Below are positions 1,745 to 17,169 of a stretch of DNA of 64,000 nt, one piece after another. The stretch's first letter is position 1. Each line of letters begins with the position of its first letter. Under the pieces are notes generated by a model. The model saw only the letters and a list, made by a program, of their open reading frames with translations. It did not search any database and was not told where the DNA came from. The position numbers were made by a program, and so were the translations under genes. Source of the stretch: an uncultured Oscillospiraceae bacterium (GTDB lineage Bacteria; Bacillota; Clostridia; Oscillospirales; Butyricicoccaceae); contig CAZIPA010000006.1 of assembly GCA_964541085.1 (NCBI GenBank), forward strand, positions 4,528 to 68,527, given 5' to 3'.

Positions 1745-3037
1745 TTACTGCTCCGTGATGTTTTTTTGCAGATCGGCCACTTTATTTTTCAAAAGCTCAT
1801 CCTCCTGCATGGCCGCCGTGAGCTTTTCCACGCCGTAAATCACAGAGGTGTGATGCTGGTTGAAGACCTTGCCGATCTCCGGATAGCTCATGCCGCCGAT
1901 CTCCCGCATGAGATAGCAGGCCACCTGCCGGGGAACCACGATCTCCTTGCTCCGGGCTTTGGAGGTGAGCCGGGACTGTTCAATGACAAAATAGTCCGCC
2001 ACTTCCTGCAGAATCATCTCCGGCGTGGGATGCAGACCGGGCTTTTCCTTGAAAATGTCCCGAATGGCCGTCTGGGCCAGCTCCATGTCAATGGGTTTGT
2101 TCATCAGCGTGTGAATGGCGGCGATTTTTTTCACCGCGCCCTCCAGCTCACGCACATTGTTGGTGATGTTCTCGGCAATGTAGGTGACCACCCGGGTGGG
2201 AATGGTGATGCCCATACCGGCGGCCTTGGCCTGAATCATGGCCATGCGGGTCTCCAGATCGGGACTCTGAATGTCCGCCATCAGACCGCTTTCAAACCGG
2301 GTGCGCAGACGGTCGTTCAGCGTGGCGATTTCCTTGGGCGGCCGGTCGGAGGTGAGCACGATCTGCTTGCCTGCCTGATACAGCGCCTCAAAGGTGTGGA
2401 AAAATTCCTCCTGCATCCGCACCTTGTTGGCGAGAAACTGTACATCGTCCATGAGCAGCAGGTCTACCTGCCGGTATTTCTGATAAAAATCCGCAAAGCC
2501 GGAGTTCAGCGCGGTCAGCAGATCGTTCATGAAATCCTCACTCTTGATGTAGAGAATGCGGAAGGTGGGATGGGTCTTGCGGATGTAGCCCGCAATGGCG
2601 AACAGCAGATGGGTCTTGCCCAGTCCGGAGCCGCCGTAAAGAAACAGCGGGTTGTACAGGGTGGCCGGCTGCTTTGCCACCGCCAGTGCCGCCGCGTGGG
2701 CAAACTGGTTGCTGCTGCCCACAATAAAGCGCTCAAAGGTGTAACCGGCGTAAACGCTGGTGTCGCTTTGCAGCCGCCAGCTGTCTGCCTCCGGGCCGAA
2801 GACATACAGAGGCCTGGTGGGTGCTTTCAAAAGATGAGAAATAATTTCCGAAACATTGTCGGTAAACTGGGCTGTCAGCGTCTCCTGAAACAGCTCGCTG
2901 GCCGCCTCGATGACAAAGCAGCCGTTTTGAATGGCGATGGGCCGGGCATCCTTGAACCAGGGATCCACGGTGATGGCTCCCAGCTCGTCCCGCAGCTGCC
3001 GCAGGGTTGCGTCCAGCAGGGCTTCGGGCGTATACAT
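1745..3037 (-). CDS. dnaA: Chromosomal replication initiator DnaA
   Basis: 430 aa. AAA+ Walker A GGSGLGKTHLL, Walker B LLLMDDVQF, C-terminal DNA-binding signature HTSVIYGVEK. GGAGG RBS. Confidence 0.95.
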   Translation of the reverse strand: MYTPEALLDATLRQLRDELGAITVDPWFKDARPIAIQNGCFVIEAASELFQETLTAQFTDNVSEIISHLLKAPTRPLYVFGPEADSWRLQSDTSVYAGYTFERFIVGSSNQFAHAAALAVAKQPATLYNPLFLYGGSGLGKTHLLFAIAGYIRKTHPTFRILYIKSEDFMNDLLTALNSGFADFYQKYRQVDLLLMDDVQFLANKVRMQEEFFHTFEALYQAGKQIVLTSDRPPKEIATLNDRLRTRFESGLMADIQSPDLETRMAMIQAKAAGMGITIPTRVVTYIAENITNNVRELEGAVKKIAAIHTLMNKPIDMELAQTAIRDIFKEKPGLHPTPEMILQEVADYFVIEQSRLTSKARSKEIVVPRQVACYLMREIGGMSYPEIGKVFNQHHTSVIYGVEKLTAAMQEDELLKNKVADLQKNITEQ

Positions 3038-3335
3038 GGCTGTGATTTCCTCCTTTTTTCTGTCTCTTTCCTTCTGGCTTTTTCCTCCGAAAATGAAAAA
3101 GCACGGCTGTCCGCGTCAGAAAAAAGCGCCCCCGCCCTCCGGTGCGTACATACCCTTCTCAGTATACCACACATATGATAAAAAGGAAAGTAAAAATTGC
3201 TGTGTTTTGCCCACGGATTTTCGCTCTGCGGGCCAAACAAAGACAGGGGAAGCTTTTCGCCGCCGGAACACTCTGTTGTTCCATTATAGCGCGTTTCCGT
3301 GCACAGAAAAAATGAAGCAGTTCACTTGACAGGTT

Positions 3336-3476
3336 CCCCGCAAAATCGAAGATTTTGCGGGGGCCACTTCAGATTTGACCGCCTCGGTCGCCCCGCTTCC
3401 GGGGCTTCCTGCGGCATGACGCCGCCACTCGGCGGCGGGGGCTTGCGCCTTTTTGCAAAATCGAAGATTTTGCGGG
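3336..3476 (+). repeat. Intergenic hairpin-cassette repeat, 'module B' copy 1
   Basis: Hairpins GCAAAATC-GAA-GATTTTGC (3340-3358, repeated at 3454-3472), GCCCCG-CTTC-CGGGGC (3390-3405) and CGCCGCC-ACTC-GGCGGCG (3420-3437). Homologous copies at 26636-26750 (inverted) and 34839-34958. Confidence 0.8.
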
Positions 3477-3543
3477 AAAGCAGAGCCGATATCATTGCGC
3501 AGCCTCTCTGCCGCCTCTCTTAAAAAATCCGCTAAAACCGCTG

Positions 3544-3552
3544 TGGTATCAT
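3544..3552 (+). promoter_or_regulatory. Candidate extended -10 promoter for the Ubl operon
   Basis: TGgTATCAT (TG-n-TATAAT-like) about 60 nt upstream of the Ubl start. No good -35. Weak call. Confidence 0.25.
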
Positions 3553-3614
3553 TATTTCACAAGCTCCCGCCGGGCACAGCCAGACGGAGAAAAAAAGAAA
3601 AGGAGATCATAAAA

Positions 3615-3932
3615 ATGACGAACCATCCTATCGACGGAGCCCTTGCCGCCAACGAAAAATCCTTTGAGATCGACCTCGTGAACAAGCAGACCGGCGCGAC
3701 CTATGCCCGGGCGAATGTCCTCGAAGACAACACCATGACGCAGATCCTTGGTGAGTATGCCGACGATATCGGCGTGAATCCCAAGAGCAGCAAACTCATT
3801 TTCGAAAACAAGCGCACCGGCGTGTCCACTTCCAATGCTGCCGAAACGGTTCAGGCCATGGGTCTGAAGCAGGGGGATGTGCTGGCAATTACGGATGACG
3901 GCGGTGTTGCGGCGGATGCTGCCGTAGTGTAA
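3615..3932 (+). CDS. Ubiquitin-like (beta-grasp) protein precursor with internal Gly-Gly
   Basis: 105 aa from ATG 3615 (AAAAGGAG RBS); the longer TTG ORF from 3453 runs through a repeat. Size and pattern fit one beta-grasp domain (KLIFENKRTG..QAMGLKQGDVLAITDDGG). G96-G97 (nt 3900-3905) is followed by the tail VAADAAVV. First gene of an E1/E2/JAB operon. Confidence 0.75.
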   Translation: MTNHPIDGALAANEKSFEIDLVNKQTGATYARANVLEDNTMTQILGEYADDIGVNPKSSKLIFENKRTGVSTSNAAETVQAMGLKQGDVLAITDDGGVAADAAVV

Positions 3933-3951
3933 GCGAAGGGGGTATGACCGG

Positions 3952-4377
3952 ATGGTGACGATCTGGATTCTGGTAGCCCTGTGTCTGGCCGCCTGCGGCG
4001 TCATCCTGATCTGTGCAACGGAAAAAGCGCCCCGGCGCCGCACTGTCAGACGGCCGCCTCCGCTCCCTCCCCGGGATCATCGGAACACAGCGCCGCCTCC
4101 GGTCGCTCGCCCCCAGACAGGCACATGCGGTGCCGCCCCCACAAGACCCCTGCCGCCCCGGCGTGTTTCAGCATCGGCAACCGTCAATGCAGCAGCAGGC
4201 ACCGTCCGGGCCGGCAGCGGCCCCCGTGGACTTCAGCCCCATCAGTTTCCCTGCTGTCCCATGGATAAATCGCGGAATGTTCCGGGAATGCAGCAGCTGA
4301 TCTTCTGGGACAGTGGGAAAAACTGCTATCGCTGTTCCCGTGGCCACCGGTTCCGGAGCAACGGAAGGCCGCTCTGA
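3952..4377 (+). CDS. Membrane-anchored Pro/Arg-rich protein with C-terminal Cys cluster
   Basis: 141 aa with a GAAGGGGG RBS. N-terminal TM helix (VTIWILVALCLAACGVILICA), a Pro/Arg-rich linker, and a C-terminal CC..CxxC..H cluster. Two other frames are also open here in this high-GC stretch, so the frame is uncertain. Confidence 0.5.
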   Translation: MVTIWILVALCLAACGVILICATEKAPRRRTVRRPPPLPPRDHRNTAPPPVARPQTGTCGAAPTRPLPPRRVSASATVNAAAGTVRAGSGPRGLQPHQFPCCPMDKSRNVPGMQQLIFWDSGKNCYRCSRGHRFRSNGRPL

Positions 4378-4403
4378 CAACACAAACGAAAGGATCGTGT
4401 CCT

Positions 4404-5675
4404 ATGTCCAAGGTTATTTACAACACATTAAAGCTGTCTGAATACCGGTCGCTGTTTCATGGAATGCGGGTGCTGGTAATCGGCGCAGGTGCGGTGGGCA
4501 CCCATCTTATGGAAAAGTTTGCGAAAATGGGTCTTTCCCCGGATGCGCTGGACTTTGACTTTTTCACGCTGGAAAACGCAGCAAAGCACAGCTGTCTGAT
4601 CCGCACGCCGGAGGATGCCAACCGGAACAAGGCGGAATGCGCCGCCGCCCGGGTACAGCCTCTTCTGGATGACGGCTGCTCCTCCAACGGGATCGACGGT
4701 GATCTTTGCAAAATCGGCCCCGAGGCGCTGGCAGATTATCGCTTTGTGGTGGTGGCTGTGGATAATTTCGATGCCAAGGTGCTGCTGGGCGAGCTGGTCC
4801 GGCAGCTTCCGGAGGAACGGCGGCCCATCGTCATCATGGACGGAACCTATGATGAGCTTGCCCAGAGCGTGATTCTCGATAACAACGACTTCTGTCTGCG
4901 CTGTCTGATCAGCGAAGACTGGATGCCCGACAGCAGCATCCGTACCTCCTGCTCCGGGCCGCAGGTGCGGCAGCGGAACGGTGCGGAGGAGATCGTCCGC
5001 ACCTCCAACCTTGCCAGCTCCATGGCCGCACAGCTCAGCGCAGAACAGCTCCGGGCCTGTGTGATCGGAAACGGCGATGTCATGAACCGCCGGCTGATCT
5101 ATACGGCCTATCCCCATCTGGAGCTGAGCTCCTCCCGGCCCCTGCGGAAGCGTGACTGCTCCGGCTGCGCGATCCATCCGCCCGCAGAGATCCAGTGGCT
5201 CCACGGCAGCGTTCTGGATATCACCCTGAAGGATGCCATGCAGCAGATTTCCGCCATTCTGGGCACGGAGGATTTCGAGCTCTCCGTCCATCAGCTGAAC
5301 TACCGGCGGGTATCCCACGCCCGCTTTATTGTGGATGATGTCTGTCATTCCTGCGGGAAACCCATCCCGGTGATGCGCCATGAGGGCCGCCTGTTTCTGA
5401 ACGATCTGCTGTGTACGGCCTGTGCCGCACAGGGAAAGCAGGCCCGTCAGGATGCCTCCTTTTCCCACGGAGAGGCGCTGGACGCCTTTGTGCCCGGCAG
5501 CCCGGAGGCGCTTCAGGAAATGACGCTCTACGATCTGGGCTATCCTCTCGGCGCACACCTTGCGGTGCTCCAGCGCAATCAGGCCCTGGACCTGCTGGAG
5601 CTGGGAAAAATCACGAAAACCGTGTTTGCATTGGACGGGGATGCCCGGAAGATGCATGAAATCCATAAGCTTTGA
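4404..5675 (+). CDS. E1-like Ubl-activating enzyme (ThiF/MoeB family)
   Basis: 423 aa. Rossmann VLVIGAGAVG (nt 4482-4499), DFDFFTLENAAKH, NKAECAA and VVAVDNFDAK match the E1 adenylation fold. Paired CxxC (CLRC, CSGC). Extra C-terminal CHSC...CTAC domain. Confidence 0.88.
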   Translation: MSKVIYNTLKLSEYRSLFHGMRVLVIGAGAVGTHLMEKFAKMGLSPDALDFDFFTLENAAKHSCLIRTPEDANRNKAECAAARVQPLLDDGCSSNGIDGDLCKIGPEALADYRFVVVAVDNFDAKVLLGELVRQLPEERRPIVIMDGTYDELAQSVILDNNDFCLRCLISEDWMPDSSIRTSCSGPQVRQRNGAEEIVRTSNLASSMAAQLSAEQLRACVIGNGDVMNRRLIYTAYPHLELSSSRPLRKRDCSGCAIHPPAEIQWLHGSVLDITLKDAMQQISAILGTEDFELSVHQLNYRRVSHARFIVDDVCHSCGKPIPVMRHEGRLFLNDLLCTACAAQGKQARQDASFSHGEALDAFVPGSPEALQEMTLYDLGYPLGAHLAVLQRNQALDLLELGKITKTVFALDGDARKMHEIHKL

Positions 5676-5690
5676 TAAGGAGGCTTTTCC

Positions 5691-6326
5691 ATGAGCGATT
5701 ATACTGCCAGCTATACCGATGAAAAGGGCCGTACCAAACAGGCCTCCCTGACCCCGGAGGACTCCATGCTGGCGCTGAAAAACGACTATGAAGAGGTTCT
5801 TCGGCGCTACAATCCCAAATATGTGACCATCCGCCGGATGCAGGCAAAGGCCGGTGAGGCGGCACACCTGCGGGTGACGGTCAACGCCCCTTCCCACTAT
5901 CTCACCGCCATCTCCGACACCGAGCCCAAGGCCTGTGACTCCATGGATGTGGATATCATCTGTTACATGGGCTATCCCCTCAAGCCGGTAAAAGCCTTCT
6001 ATGCCCCGGAGCATTATCTCGCATCCCCCAATGTGTTCCGCTCCGGGCTGGCCTGCATTGATACCTGGGTGCCCTTTACCAGCTCTCTGGTCTCGGTGGT
6101 GGACAAGCTGGTTCACGATATCATCCACGATCCCTGTGTCAGCCGGTATGACAGCGTGGCAAATCACGAAATGGTCCGGTGGCATAAGGACGGCGTTGCC
6201 GCGGGACGCTTTCCCACGCTTGCCCCCAGGCTGCTCAATGTCCCCCAGCAGACGGCGCTCCCGCCCCGCAGAGCACCCGGCAAGCCCGCTGCCGCACCTC
6301 CGTCCCTGCCCGCAAGACGCCGCTGA
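5691..6326 (+). CDS. E2-like Ubl-conjugating enzyme (UBC fold)
   Basis: 211 aa. UBC signature YMGYPLKPVKAFY..LASPNVFRSGLACIDTWVP: an HPN-like SPN motif with catalytic Cys122 at nt 6054-6056. AAGGAGG RBS. Pro/Ala-rich C-terminal tail. Confidence 0.85.
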   Translation: MSDYTASYTDEKGRTKQASLTPEDSMLALKNDYEEVLRRYNPKYVTIRRMQAKAGEAAHLRVTVNAPSHYLTAISDTEPKACDSMDVDIICYMGYPLKPVKAFYAPEHYLASPNVFRSGLACIDTWVPFTSSLVSVVDKLVHDIIHDPCVSRYDSVANHEMVRWHKDGVAAGRFPTLAPRLLNVPQQTALPPRRAPGKPAAAPPSLPARRR

Positions 6327-6347
6327 ACCGAAAGGAGCTGATCTTTT

Positions 6348-7238
6348 ATGACCAATCATGCGGTTCCCCTGCCCACCAGACGCCCGCCCCAGCCGAAAAC
6401 CTATCCCGTTTGCAGCCTGAAGAAGGTGATGGACATGATCCAGACCTCCTGCGGCAATGTTTCCATCAAAGAACGGCATGGCAGCGGCCGGGACAAGGTG
6501 ATCCTGCTTCCCGAGGCGGAGCAGGAGCTGACCACCATCGTCTCCTATGGCCGCCGCTCTCCCATGAATCGCTGCGAACAGAAGCTTGTTGGCATGGGAC
6601 ATTTCCTGCTGAACGACGACGGCGCCGTGATCGTCATCGTCAGCCATTTCATGGAGCTTCAGACCATGAACCGCAGCCCGGTCAGCGCCTCCGGTCTGGG
6701 CCCCAACGGCGAAAACAATCCCGGGCTGGATTTTCTGGAATATCATCGCACGGAGTTTCTCCGGGATGAGGCCAGATTCAACACCGATGCCTATGGCTGT
6801 CTGGTAGACCCATTTCTCAAGCTCTGCGGCCCCAGTGAGTTTGTGATGGATGCCCATACCCATCCGGATCTGGGGGTCTTTTACAGCCATGCTGACCGGG
6901 TGAACGGCGCGGCCCGTGCCGGTTCGTCTCCGGTGTGCATCCTTGTGTGCGATCCCATCCGGAAAAAGCTGCTGGGCAGCATCGGACGGGAGCTGGTGGA
7001 GGCAGAAATTCTGGTGTATTCCCGCAGTGCAGCTCCCCGGAAGGAGCGCAGCGGGGAGCCCTGCGAAGTGCCCTGCGGGGACAGCCGCCTGCTGCCGCCC
7101 ACGGACGAGCTTGTACAGCTGGCCGGTCAGTGTCTCCGCACCCGTGGCTTTTCCGGCAATGTCCGGCTCCGTTCCCGTCTGGACGGCAAATGCTGCCTGA
7201 ACATCCAGATGGTGATCCCCAAAAACAGAAAGGAGTAA
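6348..7238 (+). CDS. JAB/JAMM (MPN+) metallopeptidase, predicted Ubl-processing/deconjugating enzyme
   Basis: 296 aa. Complete JAMM motif: E77 (CEQKLVGMG) ... H170-T-H172-x7-S180-x2-D183 (HTHPDLGVFYSHAD, nt 6855-6896). AAAGGAG RBS. Confidence 0.88.
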   Translation: MTNHAVPLPTRRPPQPKTYPVCSLKKVMDMIQTSCGNVSIKERHGSGRDKVILLPEAEQELTTIVSYGRRSPMNRCEQKLVGMGHFLLNDDGAVIVIVSHFMELQTMNRSPVSASGLGPNGENNPGLDFLEYHRTEFLRDEARFNTDAYGCLVDPFLKLCGPSEFVMDAHTHPDLGVFYSHADRVNGAARAGSSPVCILVCDPIRKKLLGSIGRELVEAEILVYSRSAAPRKERSGEPCEVPCGDSRLLPPTDELVQLAGQCLRTRGFSGNVRLRSRLDGKCCLNIQMVIPKNRKE

Positions 7239-7243
7239 CGCGC

Positions 7244-8224
7244 ATGGCAAACCCTCCGGAAAAACTGGGCTCCGTGTACTACAGGAGCTTTCTCTCCCAC
7301 CAGGGGCAGATTTTTTATGACCGCCTTCAGGCCCAGCTTCTCCGGGGGGATTTTTCGGGCAAAACCGACTTTTCCCTGTGCGATCCCGAAACGGCGGCCT
7401 CCGACGGCTTTGCCGCCTACAAAGCCCTCCGGGACGATCATCCGGAGCACTTTTTTCTGGGAACCCAGAGCGAGTTTACCCGCCGGGGCCTGAGCGGCAC
7501 GCTGACCTATACGATGCTGTATACCCCGGAGATCATCGCACGGGTCCGGCAGCAGCTGCGAAAGACCATCTGCCAGCTTGTGCGCGGCACCGCGGAGCTG
7601 TCCATGCTTCAGCGGGAGGCGCTGGTTTATGAGCGCATCGCAAAGCGCATGACCTACACCAACCATGCGGATGTGCGTGACCACAACATCGTGGGGCCTG
7701 TGCTGAACGCCGAGGGTGTGTGCGAGGGGCAGAACGCGCTGCTGCTGCTGTGCTTCCGGCGGATCGGCATTCCCTGCGTCAAGGTGTACGGCAAAGCCAA
7801 CCCGGACGGCTGGCACTGCTGGACGGTGGCGTGGCCCGACGGAGACCCCGTTCACTGTGATGTGACCTGGGACGGCGCAAAGGGCGGCGTTGTAGGCTTT
7901 CATTATTTCAATCTCCCGGACCGGCAGATCGGGGAAAATCACTTCGCCTTTCAGGGAGAGCGTGTTCCCGTCTGCACTGCGGAAAATCTCACCTATTATC
8001 AGCTGCACGGCCTTTGCGTCCGTTCCCACGCAGAGCTCCGGGCACGGCTGAAGCGGGATTTTCAGCGGGGCGTAATGCCCATCCGGATTCAGTTTCTGTA
8101 CAGTCCCGCCTCCGGCAGCTATCGGGAGGAGGTCAAAAGTGCCCTTTCCGCAGAAAACCTCTATAGCAGCCGCAGACTGTACTGTTATCCCCGCTTAAAA
8201 AACATGGTAATCACCACCGTGTAA
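7244..8224 (+). CDS. Transglutaminase-like cysteine protease-fold protein
   Basis: 326 aa from ATG 7244, 5 nt after the JAB stop, with an AGGAG RBS. Transglutaminase-core Cys-His-Asp: GVCEGQN (C160), GWHCW (H191), HCDVTWD (D206). Confidence 0.82.
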   Translation: MANPPEKLGSVYYRSFLSHQGQIFYDRLQAQLLRGDFSGKTDFSLCDPETAASDGFAAYKALRDDHPEHFFLGTQSEFTRRGLSGTLTYTMLYTPEIIARVRQQLRKTICQLVRGTAELSMLQREALVYERIAKRMTYTNHADVRDHNIVGPVLNAEGVCEGQNALLLLCFRRIGIPCVKVYGKANPDGWHCWTVAWPDGDPVHCDVTWDGAKGGVVGFHYFNLPDRQIGENHFAFQGERVPVCTAENLTYYQLHGLCVRSHAELRARLKRDFQRGVMPIRIQFLYSPASGSYREEVKSALSAENLYSSRRLYCYPRLKNMVITTV

Positions 8225-8248
8225 AATCAAGACAAAGGAGTTGATGCT

Positions 8249-9337
8249 ATGTATCAATCGGTGATCAGAGACCCCGGCGGCGACGGACTGATCCGTGTTC
8301 TGCCGGATGCCTGGGGACAAAACCCCATTGTAAACGGGAGTCTGCTGCTGGTGCCCCCCGGCACGGTGGCGCTGGTGAACATCAACGGCCTGCTGTCCCG
8401 GCCCTATGGCCCCGGCAGATATGAGCTTTTCACCGGCGTGGATCCCTTCTTTGTGCGGCTCCGGAATCTTCTTACCCGTGGAGACCCCGGAACGACCGTA
8501 TCCGTCTTTTTCATTTCCACCGAAAAGACGGTGTTTCTCCGTCTCGGCACGGGTGAGTTCCCCTTCCGGGAGCATCGTTTTCAGCTGACCATGAAGGCCC
8601 TTGCCGCCTGCTGCCTTTCCTTCTCCGTGTCGGATCCCCGGACGCTGCTGGAAAAGCTGGTGGGAAGCTACCGCTCGTCCTTTTCTCAGGAGGATCTGGA
8701 GCCCTGCATCGAGCAGCTGATGCTGGCACCCGTCCGGGAAGCCGTTTCCGAAGCCATTGGCAGGCTGGATATCACGGCCTTCAACAGCCATCTTTCTCAC
8801 ATCGCAAGGCTGTCCACGGCAGCGATCCGCACCCGCCTGTCGGATTACGGCATCCGGCTGGAGCGGTTTGATCTTACAGCGATCAACATTCCCGACGGGG
8901 AAATGCAGCGGCTCTATCGTCTGGAGCAGTCGTTTGCCGAAGGGAAGACCCGCACCGATCTGGAGCTGGATCATCTGCAACGGGTCTGGCAGGGAAGCAC
9001 CGACCGCCGCACCATGAGCGAAATGATGACCGGGCTTCCTTCCCGTGGACAGGCTCCCGCCGGCGGAAACGCAGGGGGCATGGCGCCCATGATGATGCAG
9101 ATGATGATGCTTTCCCAGCTGCTTCCGGCTCTGCGGGAACCCCTTTCCGAAATGACCCGGCACACGGATCTGTTTGGCGGCAGCCCTTCCGGCCCGCAGG
9201 AAAGCACCTCCTCTGCCAACGCCCCTCCGCCCATGCCCGCCAGACACCGGCGCTGCCCCTCCTGCAACGGAGCTGTGGCACGCAGTGCCGTTCTCTGCCC
9301 CATCTGCGGCTATCCTCTGAATGAAAGGAATGACTGA
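8249..9337 (+). CDS. SPFH/band-7-like protein with C-terminal zinc ribbon (COG4260-like)
   Basis: 362 aa. The N-terminal ~250 aa resemble the stomatin/prohibitin-like 'virion core protein' family. Met/Gly-rich linker. C-terminal CPSC-x13-CPIC zinc ribbon. Confidence 0.7.
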   Translation: MYQSVIRDPGGDGLIRVLPDAWGQNPIVNGSLLLVPPGTVALVNINGLLSRPYGPGRYELFTGVDPFFVRLRNLLTRGDPGTTVSVFFISTEKTVFLRLGTGEFPFREHRFQLTMKALAACCLSFSVSDPRTLLEKLVGSYRSSFSQEDLEPCIEQLMLAPVREAVSEAIGRLDITAFNSHLSHIARLSTAAIRTRLSDYGIRLERFDLTAINIPDGEMQRLYRLEQSFAEGKTRTDLELDHLQRVWQGSTDRRTMSEMMTGLPSRGQAPAGGNAGGMAPMMMQMMMLSQLLPALREPLSEMTRHTDLFGGSPSGPQESTSSANAPPPMPARHRRCPSCNGAVARSAVLCPICGYPLNERND

Positions 9338-9338
9338 A

Positions 9339-9872
9339 ATGCAGTACAGAAATACTTCCTGGATCCCCATCCTTGCGGCCATCGTGATGATCCCCCAGCT
9401 GCTGTTCTGGTGGCTTGCGCCCGGCGCTGCCGCCGCCCGTCTCGCAGTGTACATCGGGGGAAGCCTTCTGACGCTGGCCATCCCCCTTTGCTGGCTTCTG
9501 ACCTGCTGGAACAGCAATCTCCGCAAAACGGCGGGGCTTTCTCTGGTGGCCGGGGTGCTGGAGCTGGCAGTGGTCGTGCTCTCCGCCGTTCTGCTGGCCA
9601 TCAATGTCACCGTCCGTTCTGCCGTATTTGCCCTTCTGATTATGGCGCTGGTGTGTCTGATTCTGCTGCTTCCGCTGATCTGCGCCGCCCTGAAGCAGCC
9701 TCGGCAGGGTGTCTATTCTGCCACCATCGCCGGAGAGCCAGGCCGTCCGCAGCCGCGCATCCGTGAGGCTGCTCCAGCGCCCGCACCGGTCTGCCGGCAG
9801 CAGACTGCCGTGACGGAGCCTGCGCCCCGCACGCCCACCGTCAGCAAGCCTCTGCCGCCCCGAAACCGATAA
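9339..9872 (+). CDS. Polytopic membrane protein (about 4 TM) with Pro-rich tail
   Basis: 177 aa from ATG 9339 (GAAAGGA RBS, 1 nt after the SPFH stop; an alternative ATG at 9321 overlaps it). Four hydrophobic helices, then a Pro/Ala-rich C-terminus. Confidence 0.7.
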   Translation: MQYRNTSWIPILAAIVMIPQLLFWWLAPGAAAARLAVYIGGSLLTLAIPLCWLLTCWNSNLRKTAGLSLVAGVLELAVVVLSAVLLAINVTVRSAVFALLIMALVCLILLLPLICAALKQPRQGVYSATIAGEPGRPQPRIREAAPAPAPVCRQQTAVTEPAPRTPTVSKPLPPRNR

Positions 9873-9901
9873 TCCGGCTCTGACAGAAAGGCGGTGATGC
9901 T

Positions 9902-10531
9902 ATGGATCGCGTTTGCAGCCGCTGCGGCGGCTCCAGCTTTCATTACAATCGCAGCCGCATGAGAATGGAATGCGATATCTGCGGCACGCCGGTTTCCGAT
10001 CCCCAGCGGGAACAGCAGCTGATGCAGTTTGACCGGGCCTGTTCTCAGGCGATGGAGCATCTGACTGCCGGAAACTGGGAGATGGCCCTTCAGCTTTTAC
10101 AGCCGCTGCTGCATCAGCATCCCACGGAAAAACGGCTGTATCTTGCGGTGCTGCGGGCGGCCACGAAGGATTTTACCGACATTGCCATGGCAAACGCGGC
10201 AAACCGGCACATTGCCTCGGAAGCCTGGGACAGGCTGGTACGGCTGAACGGTGTCACCGGGGCCATGATCCGGTATGGCAGACAGCGCTATGCTCTGCAC
10301 CGGGGAGAGCTTCTGCGCCAGCGCAGGAAGCTTCTGGCATGGATCTTTGCGGCGGCGCTCTGCTCGCTTCTGGCCGGTATTTTTCTGGAGACAGAGCACG
10401 GCTTTCTGGCGGTGCTGTGTGTGGGCGGTCTTTTTGGCTGCCTGTACCAATTCTCCCGCAGCCAGCCCATCCCTGTGATTCGGCATCTGCTGTGTGCCGT
10501 GCCCGGCGATCAGCACAATCCTTTTCTTTAA
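9902..10531 (+). CDS. Zinc-ribbon protein with helical repeat region and C-terminal TM hairpin
   Basis: 209 aa. N-terminal CSRC-x14-CDIC zinc ribbon, a TPR-like helical segment (AMEHLTAGNWEMALQLLQPLL), and two C-terminal TM helices. Confidence 0.7.
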   Translation: MDRVCSRCGGSSFHYNRSRMRMECDICGTPVSDPQREQQLMQFDRACSQAMEHLTAGNWEMALQLLQPLLHQHPTEKRLYLAVLRAATKDFTDIAMANAANRHIASEAWDRLVRLNGVTGAMIRYGRQRYALHRGELLRQRRKLLAWIFAAALCSLLAGIFLETEHGFLAVLCVGGLFGCLYQFSRSQPIPVIRHLLCAVPGDQHNPFL

Positions 10532-10543
10532 GGGGGTCTTTTC

Positions 10544-13087
10544 ATGAAGAAGTTTTATGATGGCGGAGAATGCTTTGTGCTGACGGCCTGCTCCATTGAG
10601 GCCGCACCCCTTGCAAGCAGCCAGCAGGTGGGCATCAACCTTGCGAAAACCCTCTGTGAGGATGCCTGCTATCTCTCCGCAGAGGGAAACGGGCAGACGG
10701 CACTGGAGCTTTTCCGCATTGCCGGAAAAACCCCCGGCAGTCCCATCCGGCATATTCTGACGATCCGTACCCATGACCGCTCGGAGCGGGATTGTGTGAT
10801 CCGGCAGGAGGCGCTGGAAAGGGGCATTCTGTCCCTGCTGCACCAGTCGGGCTACCGTATCCGTGAACTGCCCTTTGATGACTACCGGAGACAGCTTGCA
10901 CAGCTGGACACTGCCGCTGTCTGGGCGCTGAAAAAGCAGGAGGTGCAGGAATATGGCGTGCAGAACACCTATCGCTCTCCCGCAAGAGTGGAGGAGGTTC
11001 ACTGGGAAGGCATCTATTCCGCGCTGGCCGGCTCCGGCTGCGCCCTGTGCGTGCAGATCATTCCCGCTCTGCTGTCGGAGAACGAACGGCAGCGCATCGC
11101 AAAAAACACCGCCCATTGCTCTCAGGCAGTGGACGGTGTGGTGACAAATCTGCGGGACGGACTGGCTGCCGCCGCTGCGGAACGGTGGAAATACTATGCC
11201 CAGAATGCCTCCCGCCCCTTTGCAGAGGTGAATCTTCTGGTGATCGGCTCCGTTCCCGCCAGCGCCCTGACGGCGGCCCGGCTGAAGCAGTCGGTGCGGG
11301 AAGCCGCCCTGCAAACACTTCCCGTCCCGGATTTTGGCAGCTACACCGTCTACAATCAGCCCTGGCGGCTTGCCCGTGCTTTGCGCTCCGCCGACACCGG
11401 CAGTCTGGATCGGTGGACCTCTGAGGAGGCCGCCCAGATCTTTCAGCTGCCGGTGCAGGGCCATTTTTTCACCGGGCTGGAGGGAAACCCCTTCTCTCTG
11501 ATTCCCGAGCTGGAGCTTTTGCCGGAACAGCTGACCTGCGGCGGCGTGCCGGGGATCGTTCTGGGACGCTCTGTTTTTTCCGCCCGGCAGGTGGGGCTTC
11601 CGCCGGAACAGCTGCTGCTCCATACCGCAGTGATGGGAAAATCCGGCACCGGAAAGACGACGCTCCTGAAGCAGCTGATCGCACAGCTGCGGCGGCAGGG
11701 CATTCCGGTGCTGATTCTGGAGCCGGTGAAGCGGGAATACCGGGATCTGATTGCCGGACTGCCGGGCAGCAAAATCTTTACCGTGGAGCGCCCGGTGACG
11801 CCGCTGCTGATCAACCCCTTTTATGTCCCGAAGGGTGTGCCGCTGGGAGAATACAGAAGCTGTCTGCTGTCTGCCTTCAAGGCTGCCTTTTCCCTGCCCG
11901 ATCCGCTGCCGGCCCTGTTTGAAAAGGCCATCTCCGAGGCTTATACCCTGCACGGCTGGACGGACAGCAGCAGCAGCACCGATCCCGATGTCACCCTTTT
12001 TGACATGGCGGATTTTGTGCGTGTCTTCAAACGCATCATCGCCCGTTCTGGCTACAGCAATGAGGTCAAGGGCAACATGATGTCCGGCGGTGCCTTCCGG
12101 CTGCAAAGCCTGCTCGACCGCTGTCCCCGCACCTTTGATACCATCCATTCCACCGCTGTGGAGGAGCTGCTCTCCGGCTGCGCCGTTCTGGAAATGGGAA
12201 ACCTGGAGCCGGAACAGAAGGCGCTGGTTTCCGCCCTGACCCTCATCAGCATCCTGGCCTGGCTGAAGGCGACCAGAAAAAGTGAGCACCGTCTGAAAAA
12301 CATTCTTCTCATCGACGAGGCCCATGCCCTGCTGGATCAGGGAGAAGGGGCAACCATGGAGGAAAAGGCACTGAACAGCACCATGACCCAGCTGATGATC
12401 AATGTGATCACGGAGATTCGGGCCTATGGAGTGGGGGTCATTTTTTCCGTTCAGTCTCCCTCCCGGGTGGGCGGACGGCTGCTGGACAATGTGGACAACC
12501 TGCTCTCCTTCCGGCTCAGCGGCGAAGAGGCGGAAATGCTCCGGGCGCACATCGGCGCGGACGACAGTCTCTGCACGGTGCTTCCGCTGCTGTCTGCCGG
12601 TGAGCTGCTGGTGAAAAACCGCTTTCTCCGGTCTCCGCTGCCGGTCAGAATGAATGATCCCGCCGGGCTCTCCCGGACAGACCCCGTTTCCGATGAGGCC
12701 ATTGTCCGGGCGCAGACGGGCTATCTGGCGGCCCACGCCGGGGATTATTGTCCCTTTGCCCTCTGCAGGGCTGCCGGGTGCCGCTGCTGCTCCGTTTCCG
12801 TCCGGGAAGAGGCAAAGCTGTTTGCGGAGCAGCTGTTTGCCCAGCGGCAGCACAAGCTGCGCACGCCGGAGGAAGTTGCCGCACACCTGCTGCGTCTCCC
12901 GGCGGCGCTGGCCTCCCGTATTTCCCAGAGTGACAAAGGCGTTTTTCAGAAGCTTTGCGGCTGCACGGCGGTCCATCTCCTGCGGAAATGTGCCCTGGAG
13001 GGGGGCGTTTCCCTTGGCCAACAGGCCGCCGCAGCGCTGCTGACCGAAATGTATCAACAGAAAAAGGAGGAATCTGGCAATGAATGA
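10544..13087 (+). CDS. HerA/FtsK-type (DUF87-like) P-loop ATPase with large unknown N-terminal domain
   Basis: 847 aa. Walker A VMGKSGTGKTTLL followed by PVLILEPVKREY (HerA-like), Walker B NILLIDEAHALL, VIFSVQSP sensor region. Cys-rich C-terminus. AAGGGGG RBS. Confidence 0.82.
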   Translation: MKKFYDGGECFVLTACSIEAAPLASSQQVGINLAKTLCEDACYLSAEGNGQTALELFRIAGKTPGSPIRHILTIRTHDRSERDCVIRQEALERGILSLLHQSGYRIRELPFDDYRRQLAQLDTAAVWALKKQEVQEYGVQNTYRSPARVEEVHWEGIYSALAGSGCALCVQIIPALLSENERQRIAKNTAHCSQAVDGVVTNLRDGLAAAAAERWKYYAQNASRPFAEVNLLVIGSVPASALTAARLKQSVREAALQTLPVPDFGSYTVYNQPWRLARALRSADTGSLDRWTSEEAAQIFQLPVQGHFFTGLEGNPFSLIPELELLPEQLTCGGVPGIVLGRSVFSARQVGLPPEQLLLHTAVMGKSGTGKTTLLKQLIAQLRRQGIPVLILEPVKREYRDLIAGLPGSKIFTVERPVTPLLINPFYVPKGVPLGEYRSCLLSAFKAAFSLPDPLPALFEKAISEAYTLHGWTDSSSSTDPDVTLFDMADFVRVFKRIIARSGYSNEVKGNMMSGGAFRLQSLLDRCPRTFDTIHSTAVEELLSGCAVLEMGNLEPEQKALVSALTLISILAWLKATRKSEHRLKNILLIDEAHALLDQGEGATMEEKALNSTMTQLMINVITEIRAYGVGVIFSVQSPSRVGGRLLDNVDNLLSFRLSGEEAEMLRAHIGADDSLCTVLPLLSAGELLVKNRFLRSPLPVRMNDPAGLSRTDPVSDEAIVRAQTGYLAAHAGDYCPFALCRAAGCRCCSVSVREEAKLFAEQLFAQRQHKLRTPEEVAAHLLRLPAALASRISQSDKGVFQKLCGCTAVHLLRKCALEGGVSLGQQAAAALLTEMYQQKKEESGNE

Positions 13088-13733
13088 ACTGGAAACCATG
13101 GATCTGGACACCGCTGCGGAGGAGGACTTTGACCTTCCCGATGCCGACAGCTGGGCAGAGCTGGACACACCGGAGCCGGAGGACTGCGCCGGGGATATCC
13201 CGGACACACCGGAGCTGCTGTCTGATGGGGAAAAAGCTGCCGATTATGCCCGCTCCTTCGGCTTTGACCGGGCTGCGGACTATATCCAGCGGCATTATGA
13301 CGGGGACGAATACACCCCCGGCGATCCCATCCGCATTTCCACCCGCAACATGGGGCTGGAGGGTCTTGCTGCGGAAAACGGCGTTCCCTTTGAGCGGCGG
13401 ACGGCCCAGCTTGCCGAAGGTCTGTCGGTGGAGGGGGTCTTTCCCGCCTTTGACAGCCGCCATCATGTGGAGCTGGGCGATGCCGCGAAGGATATGAGCC
13501 TTCACCAGCAGTTCAGCGCCTGCAGGGAAGATTTTCAGGATCATATGTATGATTCCCCCGAAAAGCTGGCGGACATCACCTTCGGCGCGATGGAGCGGAT
13601 GGACGCACCCCAGGGCTATACGCCGGAGGGCTTCACCTGGCAGCACAATCCCGAAACCGGCAGCTTTGATCTGGTATCCAAAGACGCTCATTCCGTCGGG
13701 CACACCGGCGGGAACGCTTTGTGGGGGAAATAG
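13080..13733 (+). CDS. Acidic-N-terminus protein with HNH/EndoVII (WHH-like) nuclease motif
   Basis: 217 aa. The start overlaps the ATPase stop by 8 nt. The first ~50 aa are strongly acidic. The C-terminal GFTWQHNPETGSFDLVSKDAHSVGHTGG (nt 13638-13712) resembles the WHH/AHH-type toxin nuclease pattern W-x-H..LV...H...H-T-G-G. Confidence 0.6.
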   Translation: MNELETMDLDTAAEEDFDLPDADSWAELDTPEPEDCAGDIPDTPELLSDGEKAADYARSFGFDRAADYIQRHYDGDEYTPGDPIRISTRNMGLEGLAAENGVPFERRTAQLAEGLSVEGVFPAFDSRHHVELGDAAKDMSLHQQFSACREDFQDHMYDSPEKLADITFGAMERMDAPQGYTPEGFTWQHNPETGSFDLVSKDAHSVGHTGGNALWGK

Positions 13734-13999
13734 TGCGCCGCAGGCGCTGTATGCCTTCTCAGGCGGCCCCCCCACAAACGCAAAGCACCCCTGGGAGACC
13801 CCAGAGGTGCTTTGTCCAATACAGTGAACGGACAACCGGATGTGTTTAAGGAGTTCTTTATGAAAAAAGCGTTTTGCTTTTCCCTGTGTGTCTATAATAT
13901 ATCAAACCCGCAGGCATCTGTCAAGATGAAATCTGAAAATCGTGATGTTGCACAAAATACACAGGTTCCGATTGTGCAGTATGCTCAATGGGCACACGG

Positions 14000-14049
14000 G
14001 CTTTTTCCAAAAGAGCACTCCGGCAGGGCTAGAAGCCGCCGCCGGAGTG
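14000..14049 (-). terminator. Rho-independent terminator of htrA
   Basis: Stem CACTCCGGC (14016-14024) / GCCGGAGTG (14041-14049) with inner pairing. On the minus strand a U-rich CTCTTTTGG follows it. Confidence 0.5.
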
Positions 14050-14077
14050 TAATTGCATTCTGCTGCTTGTCTGCCGG

Positions 14078-15583
14078 TCAGTTGGCGTTGGGGTTTGCCA
14101 CCAGTGTGACGCTGACGGAAACCAGCTTGCCGCTGCGCTCCACATTCAGCTCCACCACATCGCCGGGGGCCTTGTCCGCCAGATAATCCGTCACATCGGT
14201 GCTCTGGGAGACCATCACCGCGTCCACGCTGATGATCCGGTCGCCCACGGCCAGACCAGCTTCCTCGGTGCTCTTTTCCGTAATGCTGGAAACATACACG
14301 CCGGGAGCCATGTTATACTGCGCCGCCGTCTGAGAGGTGAGGGTCTGAACGGTGATGCCCAGAATGGCCCGGTTGGAGGTCTGGGTCACGCCGTTTTCAT
14401 CGGTGTTTGTGCTGCCGTCGCCGTCGGGAGACACATAAACGCCGTTGGCGATGAGCTGAGAAGCGATCTCCATGGCCGTGTTGCTGGGGATGGCGAAGCC
14501 CAGTCCCTCAGAATCGGTGTCCGAGCTCTTGGCGGAAACAATGCCGATGAGCTGGCCGTGATCGTTGAACAGCGCGCCGCCGGAGTTGCCGGGAGAAACC
14601 GCCGCCGTCATCTGGATCACATGGAGGGTCACATTGGTATAATAGCTGGCAGAGCCGCCGTAGAACATATCATAGAGGCTGTTGCCCCGGTTTTTGGCGC
14701 TGGTATCCTCCACCTGCACGGTGATGGTGCGGTCGAGGGCGGACACAATGCCGTCGGAAATGGAGCCGGAAAAGCGGCCCTCCGGGTTGCCCACGGCGTA
14801 GCAGGCGGCACCCTGGCGCACCTGATCGCTGTCGGCGATTTCCGCAGCCTTCAGACCCTGAGCGTCGATCTTCACCACGGCGATATCACCGTTTACATAG
14901 CTGCCGGTGATCTGTGCCGCATGGGTGGTGCCGTCCCGCAGCTCCACGGTGACCTTGGAAGCGCCGTTGATCACATGGGCGGCGGTGAGGATGTAGCCAT
15001 CCTCCGAAATAATCACGCCGGAGCCTGCGCCGGAGGTGACATAATTGCCGAACCAGTAGTTGCTGGTGGTCATGATCTCGGTGGTAATGGCCACCACGGA
15101 ATCCTCCACCTTGGCCGCCACCTGTTCGCTGGTGAGCACACCTTCCGCCACGGCGGCGGGGGTATCGTTGCCGGTGGTGGTCACCTGCTGGAGCACCACA
15201 CGGTTGGTGTTCTGATAGACGATCTGCGCACCCGCATAGCCCGCGCCAAAGCAGATAGCCGCAGCCACCAGCACCGCCAGCACGCTCAGCAGCACCTTTT
15301 TGCCGTTGATCCTTTTCCGGGGCCGGCGCGGGGGCTCGGTCACCGTGGGCTGGGGCGGCGTAAAGGTGGAATCCTGCCATTCTGCCGTGCCAAAGCTGGC
15401 CTGCCGGGGCTCCTCCTCCTGCTGATAGGGGAGACTCTGACTGGTATAATGATATTCACTGCTTTCCGAGGGAGAAGGGGCAGCGAACGGCTCCTGAGGG
15501 ATTTCCTGCTCCGGCTGCCGGGGCTGCTCCTGAGGCTGCTCGGGCTGTTCGGGCTGATATCCGTTGTTTTCAAACTCGTTCAT
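14078..15583 (-). CDS. htrA: HtrA/DegP-family serine protease with PDZ domain
   Basis: 501 aa. Trypsin-like triad context (LTAAHVINGA, GNSGGALFN). C-terminal PDZ-like region. N-terminal Q/P/E-rich segment and a TM anchor. Confidence 0.9.
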   Translation of the reverse strand: MNEFENNGYQPEQPEQPQEQPRQPEQEIPQEPFAAPSPSESSEYHYTSQSLPYQQEEEPRQASFGTAEWQDSTFTPPQPTVTEPPRRPRKRINGKKVLLSVLAVLVAAAICFGAGYAGAQIVYQNTNRVVLQQVTTTGNDTPAAVAEGVLTSEQVAAKVEDSVVAITTEIMTTSNYWFGNYVTSGAGSGVIISEDGYILTAAHVINGASKVTVELRDGTTHAAQITGSYVNGDIAVVKIDAQGLKAAEIADSDQVRQGAACYAVGNPEGRFSGSISDGIVSALDRTITVQVEDTSAKNRGNSLYDMFYGGSASYYTNVTLHVIQMTAAVSPGNSGGALFNDHGQLIGIVSAKSSDTDSEGLGFAIPSNTAMEIASQLIANGVYVSPDGDGSTNTDENGVTQTSNRAILGITVQTLTSQTAAQYNMAPGVYVSSITEKSTEEAGLAVGDRIISVDAVMVSQSTDVTDYLADKAPGDVVELNVERSGKLVSVSVTLVANPNAN

Positions 15584-16209: not shown

Positions 16210-16617
16210 TCAAAGCGCTCCTTTTGCGTCGCGGTAATACTCCAGACTTTTCCGCAGGAATTCCTCCGGCACGGAAAAATAGTCCGCCAGCTCGTCGGGT
16301 CGGGTGAGGCCACGGCGCAGCGCACTTTTCAGCTCCCGCAGCGGCACCAGCCGCCGGATGGCCCAGCGGTCGGCCTTTTGTTCACAGCGGGCCCGCTGGA
16401 TCCGGCTGCTGTCCATGGTATAAAAGCTGCCGGTGGCACAATGCCCCATTTCATGTGCCAGACAGACCAGCTCCTCCGCACCGGTTTTCAGCTTGGAGAC
16501 ATCCATCCCGATATACCCGTCCGGGGTGGAAATGGCGGTGCTGCTCCGCAGCGGAAAGCAGAAAACCTGAAGTCCCAGACGGTCCGCCGTCTGATACAGG
16601 TCCTGCAGGCGGGTCAT
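16210..16617 (-). CDS. ImmA/IrrE-family zinc metallopeptidase
   Basis: 135 aa with an HEMGH zinc motif (CLAHEMGHC). The start overlaps the stop of the upstream XRE gene (ATGA). Confidence 0.85.
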   Translation of the reverse strand: MTRLQDLYQTADRLGLQVFCFPLRSSTAISTPDGYIGMDVSKLKTGAEELVCLAHEMGHCATGSFYTMDSSRIQRARCEQKADRWAIRRLVPLRELKSALRRGLTRPDELADYFSVPEEFLRKSLEYYRDAKGAL

Positions 16618-16940: not shown

Positions 16941-17011
16941 AGCCCATTGCTCCTTTCCGGTTTCCTGTTACCAACACCATATCACATCTTTTTGAAAATG
17001 TAAAGAAATAA

Positions 17012-17133: not shown

Positions 17134-17169
17134 TTGTGTCCGATAAACAGGACAGAAAGGACGGTAGCT

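Follow-up and report, generated by a model that had tools for sequence, protein, structure and literature searches.

Does a compact gene cluster in an uncultured Oscillospiraceae bacterium (GTDB family Butyricicoccaceae) encode a complete pathway for the conjugation of a ubiquitin-like protein (Ubl), and does this pathway belong to one of the systems already described in bacteria? We analysed a stretch of 64,000 nucleotides from this genome (GCA_964541085.1, contig CAZIPA010000006.1, positions 4,528 to 68,527 of the forward strand), referred to here as the window and numbered from its first letter. The first-pass annotation of this DNA had placed E1, E2 and JAB open reading frames (ORFs) at 4404-5675, 5691-6326 and 6348-7238 (+), behind genes for a Ubl and a transmembrane (TM) protein. 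Both the ORFs and the gene order Ubl, TM protein, E1, E2, JAB were borne out, while it had escaped notice that these genes form the core of a conserved operon of 11 genes (3615-13733), all on the forward strand and either overlapping or spaced by no more than 30 nt, with gaps of 15 nt between E1 and E2 and 21 nt between E2 and JAB. Our best explanation of the whole, to which we give a probability of about 0.7, is that a predicted thioester-type core complete for Ubl conjugation and deconjugation sits within a membrane and ATPase-nuclease operon that serves as a conflict or defence module.

Gene calls in the window were based on codon-position GC and homology in place of greedy longest-ORF calling, which was defeated by the long antisense ORFs that this DNA of 60 % GC contains. 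Those at 4428-7250 (-) and 10097-13207 (-), with 940 and 1036 stop-free codons, were rejected as high-GC artefacts on account of their codon-position GC. The E1, E2 and JAB ORFs have a third-position GC (GC3) of 0.72-0.74, as in real genes of the window. Residue invariance was scored in alignments of 31-32 homologues with 49-79 % identity; all motifs quoted in the first-pass annotation are present and each residue that it named is invariant. No model in Pfam, NCBIfam or PADLOC scored above threshold for E2, JAB or the TM protein (TM1).

The product of the E2 gene is predicted to be a UBC-fold conjugating enzyme followed by a tail with two LPxRR motifs. The window E2 itself has no match in Pfam (E ≤ 0.1, PF00179 included), NCBIfam or PADLOC, and only two approaches tied it to the UBC family, namely structure prediction and a wider profile obtained after a search of all representative proteins. 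The AlphaFold2 (AF2) model has a mean predicted local distance difference test score (pLDDT) of 89.3, and among the top 50 Foldseek matches listed from the PDB all are eukaryotic E2s, with Cdc34 the best (4.6e-5) and Ube2G1/2, Ubc9, Rad6 and UbcH5 also present, at a probability of 1.00 and with TM-scores (normalised to target) mostly of 0.45-0.64. The fold thus agrees with the original assignment as an E2. The profile search of 1.84 billion representative proteins recovered 83 relatives (clusters), and nine of 43 distant relatives match Pfam UQ_con, the best at 3.2e-15. Searched against the PDB, the broad family profile matched UBE2A/Rad6 at 1.3e-8 and placed Cys122 on the catalytic Cys of Rad6, which is where the first-pass annotation had put it. 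Searches with a narrow alignment profile, which returned antibody light-chain noise only, and with the single sequence, which gave one match at E = 1, were set aside.

The residues G94-Y95-P96, S112-P113-N114 and C122 are invariant in 31-32 close homologues, and N114 and C122 remain so across 43 sequences down to ~20 % identity. The stretch 'SPNVF..G.aC' lines up with 'HPNVYADGSICLD' (HPNVYADGSIC) of Rad6/UBE2A and a downstream S-x-A-N with 'SPAN', such that Cys122 lies eight residues past Asn114 of an HPN-like SPN motif in which Ser takes the place of His. The Rad6 alignment, the UQ_con matches and the fold together argue for a divergent canonical UBC enzyme with Ser for the His of HPN. The Pro/Ala/Arg-rich tail described previously is present, but it also carries a docking-type motif, shared with the N-terminus of JAB, that had been overlooked. 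The distant E2 relatives include natural fusions of both E1-E2 and Ubl-E2 type as well as E2s whose tails contain 4-6 tandem LPPRR / RPALPG repeats (proteins P0368, 640 aa; P0435, 320 aa; P0361; P0381 for these features together).

The E1 (423 aa) combines a ThiF-type adenylation domain (residues ~21-250) with a C-terminal domain (~258-423). Its assignment was confirmed by a match of residues 21-250 to Pfam ThiF (PF00899; 9.4e-15, 54.8 bits against a cut-off of 28.1) and by Foldseek comparison of the AF2 model (pLDDT 82.8), for which UBA3 was best (1.3e-13, with near full-length alignments), then ThiF (3e-10; TM-score normalised to target 0.64), with further matches to UBA7, SAE2, Atg7, MccB, Uba4, Cap2 and BubCD. 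The family profile matched the active adenylation domain of Uba1 first in the PDB (1.8e-7, spanning E1 residues 14-129), then TcdA, UBA3 and Cap2. In an alignment of 32 homologues (58-79 % identity) the invariant residues include G27/G29/G32 of GAGAVG, D120-N121, and D50, D52, E57, N58 and K61 within DFDFFTLENAAKH. K61 occupies what we take to be the Arg position of the MoeB motif DFDTVSLSNLQRQ; the ATP/Mg motifs of the PF00899 type (GxGxxG, DxD...N..R and the DN aspartate) are therefore present with Lys replacing Arg.

The same alignment shows invariance of C164/C167 and C252/C255, the structural Zn site of the adenylation domain, and of a second C4 set (C314/C317/C337/C340) in the C-terminal 165 residues, which form a further domain that includes a C4 zinc site and weakly matches TraR/DksA-type zinc fingers. 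All the E1 motifs given in the first-pass annotation (GAGAVG, VDNFD, CLRC/CSGC, the Cys of IRTSCSGPQ and CHSC...CTAC) were thus found with their residues invariant. Among these, C183 lies between the two CxxC pairs, is invariant and is kept as R-x-S-C both in the 27 %-identical E1 of a distant operon and in a natural E1-E2 fusion. Its invariance, its position and its conservation in the 27 %-identical relative make it the candidate catalytic Cys. It sits in a lower-confidence segment of the crossover region in the model, a segment that is probably mobile. As E1 has a single adenylation domain, it is presumably active as a homodimer, in the way of ThiF, MoeB or Cap2.

Resemblance to ThiF also allows a different chemistry, already considered in the first-pass annotation, in which the enzyme acts as in sulfur-carrier or other ThiF/MoeB-like adenylation pathways, so that the beta-grasp protein is thiocarboxylated or a peptide modified and no protein is conjugated. 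ThiF is the best NCBIfam match of E1 (1.9e-11) and is among its best fold matches, and ThiF, too, features Zn-binding CxxC pairs and a Cys in the crossover loop. However, the NCBIfam sulfur-carrier equivalogs score far below their cut-offs (TIGR02356 for ThiF, 43.7 against 275.25; MoeB, 17.6 against 266), while Uba1 and UBA3 score equal to or better than ThiF. The genomic neighbours of E1 are E2, JAB and membrane proteins, with no biosynthetic neighbours of ThiS/MoaD type and no thiamine or molybdopterin genes in the operon. The E1 always has as neighbours a JAMM peptidase and a UBC-fold E2 whose catalytic Cys is invariant, and natural E1-E2 fusions exist, all of which makes sulfur-carrier chemistry highly improbable.

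The third enzyme is a predicted JAB/JAMM metallopeptidase of 296 aa with a beta-rich C-terminal extension. The residues proposed for its active site, E77 and H170-x-H172-x7-S180-xx-D183, are invariant in 31-32 homologues. H170, H172, S180 and D183 align with the zinc motif of Rpn11 ('HSHPGFGCWLSGVD'), the top PDB match of the JAB profile with an E value of only 0.29, and with the Pfam-positive JAB of a distant operon (hhalign probability 94 %, C-terminal half only); the single sequence had no PDB match. An hhalign comparison with an Rpn11 sequence likewise aligned the C-terminal half only. E77 is followed by G82/G84 and other invariant Glu residues exist; because hhalign covers the C-terminal half only, Glu77 is a plausible candidate for the catalytic Glu, a role that the first-pass annotation had stated more firmly and that alignment did not reproduce. 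The JAB assignment is supported at the level of sequence by the exact JAMM motif, by sub-threshold Prok-JAB matches in 25 of the 31 homologues and by the 94 % hhalign probability. The N-terminal extension of ~70 aa described earlier carries towards its start a PLPxRR motif, the shared docking-type motif, which had gone unremarked.

The substrate of these enzymes would be the product of the first gene (3615-3932, 105 aa), a beta-grasp protein of the Ub/SUMO type whose ATG is preceded by the Shine-Dalgarno-like sequence AAGGAG. The Ubl family profile matched the Ddi1 UBL (0.0021), then the NPL4 Ubl domain and SUMO1, and in Pfam five of 20 members match Rad60-SLD and nine of 20 UN_NPL4. The window Ubl ends (3900-3932) in ...DDG96G97-V98A99-ADAAVV, that is, GGVA plus six residues, and nearly all homologues end in ...[AG]GVA at the stop codon. 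This conserved GVA ending, which the first-pass annotation missed, means that the GG of the window Ubl is not the gene-encoded terminus. Head-to-tail di-Ubl fusions, with ...AGVA running directly into ANEE..., occur in four loci (L002, L003, L006 and L015), and arrays of up to four Ubl genes are also found (L008, 5022-6521); fused and arrayed genes would imply obligatory processing by a peptidase. A distant Ubl ends in ...VAG, a Ubl-E2 fusion junction reads ...NVAG followed by L, and in Type II Bil systems the native C-terminal Gly-Ala is trimmed by the JAB protein BilC to expose Gly (PMC10557695). For these reasons cleavage after the Ubl Gly is favoured, and by analogy JAB trimming would most likely expose this Gly.

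A scan of 185,579 species genomes identified 32 related loci from Lachnospiraceae, Oscillospiraceae, Anaerovoracaceae, Butyricicoccaceae, Erysipelotrichaceae and unclassified Clostridia, one metagenome-assembled genome (MAG) carrying two copies. The order Ubl-TM1-E1-E2-JAB is found in 28 of the 32, which are all those reaching far enough upstream, the other four being cut by contig ends; loci with the conserved order come from several families and share 50-77 % identity. TM1 lies between Ubl and E1 in 28 of the 32 loci by tblastn and in 26 by ORF clustering. The accessory genes vary more, with ORF clustering placing the transglutaminase-like gene (TGL) in 25 loci, the SPFH and ZnTM genes in ~20, TM2 in 14 and the ATPase-nuclease pair in 11; tblastn counts for accessory genes were similar or slightly higher. 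Other families are associated with the module in some genomes. Upstream in L001, L006, L013, L014, L017, L031 and L035 these include an ATPase resembling type IV secretion system (T4SS) coupling proteins, TPR and YbjN-like proteins and a putative SprT-like metallopeptidase, and downstream in L005-L008, L029, L030 and L035 ClpP and a 272-aa protein without an assigned family. Elsewhere a set comprising PP2C, a protein of no recognised family and a Ser/Thr kinase stands beside the module. None of these families (T4SS coupling protein-like ATPase, TPR, YbjN-like, ClpP, kinase/PP2C) is present in the window. Among 138 de-duplicated ORFs from the flanks, pooled and scanned with Pfam, diverse housekeeping families predominated, with no enrichment of integrase or phage families among the top ones. 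As the flanks lack such enrichment, mobility of the module is something we infer from its patchy distribution.

A more distant locus (L033, 4621-7208) encodes a ThiF E1 (379 aa), a Ubl (83 aa, ending in VAG), a UQ_con E2 with a C-terminal zinc ribbon, and a JAB. Its neighbours are a restriction-modification-like pair of ResIII helicase and N6_N4 DNA methyltransferase, HipA, an integrase and a PDC-S11 candidate. On its gene content this locus may represent a wider uncharacterised class of bacterial Ubl operons with canonical E2s.

The enzymes of the operon are connected to its other products by a proline-rich motif. PPLPxR is the consensus of class II SH3 ligands. Searching for P-[LMIV]-P-x-[RK] / [LM]-P-P-[RK] gave seven strict matches in the 3,319 aa of the module (0.21 expected, Poisson P ~3e-9) as against one in the 15,673 aa encoded by the rest of the window. 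Two are in TM1 (3952-4377) and one each in the E2 tail (6260-6326, together with a looser C-terminal SLPARRR), the JAB N-terminus (6366-6380), the SPFH protein (9230-9245), the extreme C-terminus of TM2 (9849-9869) and the ATPase, where it is poorly conserved. Across the 32 loci the motif stays on TM1, E2, JAB, SPFH and TM2 (mean 0.85-1.84 per protein against a background of 0.05 per 1,000 aa); the Ubl, TGL, ZnTM, ATPase and nuclease families do not have it, and some E2 relatives have four to six tandem copies in their tails. The motif probably docks TM1, E2, JAB, SPFH and TM2 onto one common reader. Since it is kept in minimal loci of five genes, the reader is likely to be either E1, with its extra C-terminal domain, or the Ubl itself, and docking of this kind would concentrate the conjugation cascade at the membrane.

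Four products of the operon could provide such a membrane platform. TM1 (3952-4377, +) is a single-pass membrane protein (TM residues 4-22) with a Pro-rich linker holding its two PPLPPR-type motifs and a conserved C-terminal Cys/His domain (FPCCPxDxxRN...CYxCxxGH), and belongs to no family in Pfam, NCBIfam or PADLOC. The SPFH / zinc ribbon protein (8249-9337, +) matches Band_7_1 (4.2e-15) and Zn_ribbon_3 (1.8e-4) in Pfam, contains a stretch of low complexity together with a PPPMPxR motif, as well as its C-terminal zinc ribbon, and is predicted to be soluble, having no TM segment. Its gene is overlapped by 17 nt by that of TM2 (9321-9872, +), a multi-pass membrane protein with at least three predicted TM segments and a C-terminal PLPPRNR that is invariant in 15 sequences. 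ZnTM (9902-10531, +) has an N-terminal zinc ribbon with conserved Cys pairs (CxxC...CxxC), a helical region and a C-terminal TM region (TM 144-162). By described architecture only, these last three resemble YdjI (SPFH / zinc ribbon), YdjH (TM2, which holds the corresponding position) and YdjG (ZnTM) of the B. subtilis PspA-YdjGHI (SamGHI) system, whose members recruit PspA to the membrane and are linked to membrane stress (PMC8581546, PMC9239133). The gene order here is I-H-G, in contrast to YdjGHI, and no pspA gene is present in the operon.

This likeness bears on a second alternative, that the operon is a pathway of membrane protein quality control or stress response in which membrane proteins, or proteins associated with SPFH, receive the Ubl as a mark for extraction or degradation, the trio acting as a platform and ClpP or the ATPase working downstream. 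Besides the YdjI/G/H architecture of PspA recruiters, ~10 loci have a true ClpP gene after the module and one distant E2 relative also matches Clp_protease. Psp can moreover be a target of bacterial conjugation: the CBASS of Bacillus is linked to the PspA / SPFH-YdjGHI membrane system, with the cyclase conjugated to PspA by Cap2 (PMC11153139). A housekeeping pathway would however be unlike the sporadic distribution of the module across families, a WHH nuclease toxin domain lies within the operon, and neither ClpP in the window nor pspA in the operon was found. We therefore consider quality control rather unlikely.

The remaining genes encode a second possible peptidase and a putative effector. 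TGL (7244-8224, +), whose start we correct slightly to the ATG at 7244 just after JAB, is a transglutaminase-like papain-fold Cys peptidase or transamidase by its Pfam Transglut_core match (3.2e-6, above cut-off); GVCEG, HCW and DVTWD, holding the Cys-His-Asp triad, are kept in 27 homologues, and a PDB search gave no match. The ATPase (10544-13087, +; 847 aa) belongs to the HerA/FtsK superfamily of P-loop ATPases (HerA_C, DUF87, AAA_22), has Walker A (GKSGTGKTT) and B (LLIDEAH) motifs that are conserved, and matches the PADLOC models mad8 (2.7e-17) and HerA (6e-14). Overlapping it by 8 nt, which suggests translational coupling, is the nuclease gene (13080-13733, +), which always follows the ATPase gene in related loci. 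It encodes an HNH (EndoVII-fold) domain of WHH/colicin-DNase type behind an acidic N-terminal region, with Pfam matches to Colicin-DNase (9.6e-12; 46.0 against a cut-off of 25) and WHH (5.4e-8; 32.9 against 25.1) and a conserved C-terminal WQHNPETG...GHTGGNALWG. Several relatives have an ORF of 91-97 aa (family F19) after the nuclease gene.

WHH and colicin-DNase domains are typical heads of polymorphic toxins, and the ATPase weakly matches the VirB4, TraC, TrwB and CedD models, so that the ATPase and membrane proteins might instead export the nuclease in inter-bacterial competition, as in type VII secretion loci, where nuclease toxins and an FtsK-like ATPase occur with YukD, a Ubl that is not conjugated, or be an accessory of a conjugative element. 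Genes resembling T4SS coupling proteins recur beside the module, and YukD-type Ubls associate with FtsK-like ATPases according to a 2006 survey (PMC1779556). However, E1, E2 and JAB keep every catalytic residue, which would be needless in YukD-type systems, the nuclease lacks both a signal sequence and one of LXG/WXG type, no immunity gene follows it in the window, and half of the loci do without the ATPase and nuclease while always keeping the Ubl core. Toxin export is thus a poor fit to the locus and in our judgement quite improbable.

If the operon conjugates a Ubl, its nearest counterparts are the bacterial systems that do the same. Like the antiphage Bil systems (BilABCD, Type I/II), it encodes four activities on separate proteins (Ubl, E2, JAB and E1) within one operon and without an E3, the predicted E1 and E2 cysteines would imply thioester chemistry, and the Ubl has extra residues past the reactive Gly as in Gly97-Ala98 of BilA (PMC10557695). 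The earlier claim that no RING or HECT E3 can be recognised held in Pfam, PADLOC and NCBIfam scans. In contrast to the Bil E1, which has tandem IAD-AAD adenylation domains and an inserted helical CYS domain, the E1 here has one ThiF domain, its Cys lies within a short crossover segment, and its C-terminal Zn domain is unrelated. The E2 is nearer to canonical UQ_con/HPN-type E2s than to the CEHH-type BilB, the gene order is different and seven further genes (TM1, TGL, the SPFH trio, ATPase and nuclease) are conserved. None of the PADLOC Bil models, a library that includes BilD, was matched at E ≤ 0.1 by the Ubl, E1, E2 or JAB. Because of the E1 architecture, the type of E2 and the lack of a match to Bil hidden Markov models, we regard the operon as Bil-like in its predicted working yet not a member of Bil.

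Type II CBASS Cap2/Cap3 likewise unites an E2 and a JAB peptidase with a ThiF-type E1 whose Cys is in the crossover loop. In Cap2 the E1 and E2 are fused whereas here they are separate, a difference that the first-pass annotation had rightly pointed out, and the modifier here is a dedicated Ubl, not a CD-NTase. No model for a CD-NTase, cyclase or nucleotide-activated effector was matched in the operon (Pfam, PADLOC); the unfused enzymes and the lack of a cyclase set it apart from Cap2/Cap3. Bub (6E/DUF6527) operons also combine Ubl, E1 and E2 (with JAB in some), and the Ubl-E2 and E1-E2 fusions among relatives resemble BubAB and BubBD. Bub enzymes however lack catalytic cysteines, use Tyr/Ser oxyesters and are accompanied by the DUF6527 serine protease (PMC11601596), while here both C183 and C122 are invariant and no DUF6527 match was found in the operon with Pfam, so that it is not Bub either. 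The 6C and 6E operons of the Bil and Bub papers have different gene contents (PMC10557695, PMC11601596, PMC11601603), no operon of such composition appears in the portion of the 2006 survey covering classes 6a-6c of prokaryotic Ub-related operons (PMC1779556), and our literature searches found no description of it. The operon is, to judge from its gene and domain content, a previously uncatalogued bacterial Ubl-conjugation system, a variant among bacterial ubiquitination-like operons in which the C-terminal domain of E1, the network of motifs and the two arms, membrane and nuclease, are new.

In structure and profile comparisons the core enzymes match the eukaryotic NEDD8/ubiquitin machinery best: UBA3 and Uba1 for E1, Cdc34, Ube2G, Rad6 and UbcH5 for E2, and Rpn11 for JAB. 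The HPN-Asn, Cys and SPAN-like motifs of the E2 align, and some relatives have fused Ubl precursors resembling polyubiquitin. Unlike the eukaryotic machinery, there is no inactive adenylation partner or domain, no recognised UFD and no RING or HECT E3, Ser replaces the HPN His and identities are only 11-20 %.

In the pathway that we propose, the Ubl would be made as a precursor (...GG-VA-ADAAVV in the window, ...AG-VA in most relatives and di-Ubl in some) and trimmed by the JAMM peptidase, most likely to expose Gly by analogy with Bil and with the distant Ubls ending in ...VAG. The single-domain, presumably homodimeric E1 would adenylate the Ubl C-terminus and load the Ubl on Cys183, from where it would be handed to Cys122 of E2, with Asn114 as the putative oxyanion residue. 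Transfer to lysines by E2 would proceed without a dedicated E3, and JAB, possibly also TGL, would reverse the modification. TM1 and the SPFH / zinc-ribbon / TM trio would form the membrane platform at which PPLPxR docking gathers the cascade, and Ubl conjugation may control or accompany the ATPase-nuclease effector.

As to its role, the module is most likely a conflict or defence system of sporadic distribution, probably spread horizontally. We favour this over a housekeeping role because of its rarity and patchy spread (32 loci in 185,579 species genomes and 83 clusters in 1.84 billion representatives, in varied chromosomal contexts), its duplication in one genome and its toxin-type nuclease; the accessory kinase/PP2C and ClpP genes and the defence-island context of the distant relative point the same way. 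A number of observations weigh against this reading as a whole or in part. The assignment of Cys183 as the catalytic residue of E1 is purely positional, the Prok-JAB match of JAB (E = 0.003, 17.9 bits) is below the Pfam cut-off of 25, and the catalytic Glu of JAB was reproduced by no alignment, as hhalign never covered the N-terminal half. For E2, JAB and Ubl there is no PADLOC model, and E1 matches only the CBASS E1-E2 (Cap2) models of that library, and those weakly. The very strong conservation of V-A past the Gly could mean that Ala is the conjugated residue of the Ubl; CBASS cyclases can end in Ala and some are conjugated through it (PMC11153139). The ATPase-nuclease pair is missing from half of the loci, all of which keep the Ubl core, and is therefore not obligatory. 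In the window no obvious immunity gene follows the nuclease and no known defence gene stands beside the operon, the nearest candidate being a methyltransferase locus ~45 kb away. Searches with the E2 gave nothing among PLSDB plasmids or INPHARED phages and a single contig in IMG/VR.

Within the conflict or defence reading, we tentatively envisage a membrane-tethered ubiquitination hub, in which PPLPxR would dock E2, JAB, TM1 and the SPFH platform on the E1 C-terminal Zn domain, as a substitute for a UFD, or on the Ubl, as a counterpart of SIM/UIM recognition. Conjugation might then sense envelope perturbation at phage or plasmid entry and license the HerA-like ATPase/HNH nuclease as a suicide effector. 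This specific scheme is possible but well short of probable.

The presence of dnaN (331-1446, -), dnaA (1745-3037, -) and a YaaA/S4-like gene (111-329) near the start of the window places the operon beside the region of a chromosomal replication origin. The adjoining spacer (3038-3614) shows no enrichment of perfect DnaA boxes, and a promoter and terminator scan of 3000-14200 was uninformative. A GC-clamped 19-bp palindromic hairpin, GCAAAATCGAAGATTTTGC, occurs at 3340-3358 and 3455-3473, between dnaA and the operon, and at 34843-34861. It was considered as an operator and dropped because of this third copy elsewhere and because none of the 32 related loci has it; a repeat specific to this genome, or an element resembling a terminator, is more probable. 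Some 2.5 kb downstream of the operon (16210-17475) are an IrrE/ImmA-like M78 peptidase and a Cro/C1-type helix-turn-helix regulator (-), then a Mor-family activator (+), regulator types that are typical of integrated mobile elements. A low-GC island at 58128-60228 (-), with a GC content of 0.44 against 0.60, carries the coding sequences of a D12-class N6-adenine DNA methyltransferase and of a protein with DUF6996, DUF6997 and DUF7226, and is probably an acquired locus of restriction-modification type.

To our knowledge CBASS Cap2/3, Bil and Bub are the only three types of bacterial ubiquitination-like pathway elucidated so far. The operon family described here, found mainly in gut Clostridia, a group that the Bil and Bub papers cited here do not mention, would add a fourth architecture, which combines a minimal single-domain E1 and its new C-terminal domain with polyubiquitin-like Ubl precursors, a linear-motif network and membrane and nuclease arms. 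Its E2, of HPN/Cys/SPAN type and linked to UQ_con, is suggested by these motifs to be the most eukaryote-like so far, and E2, JAB and TM1 are flagged as protein families beyond the current Pfam, NCBIfam and PADLOC models at threshold. The system may offer a compact model of an E1/E2/deubiquitinase assembly that does without a UFD or an E3 and of the coupling of a Ubl pathway to an effector, and may likewise serve as a model for the pre-eukaryotic origin of features of the ubiquitin system such as interaction motifs and poly-Ubl genes.

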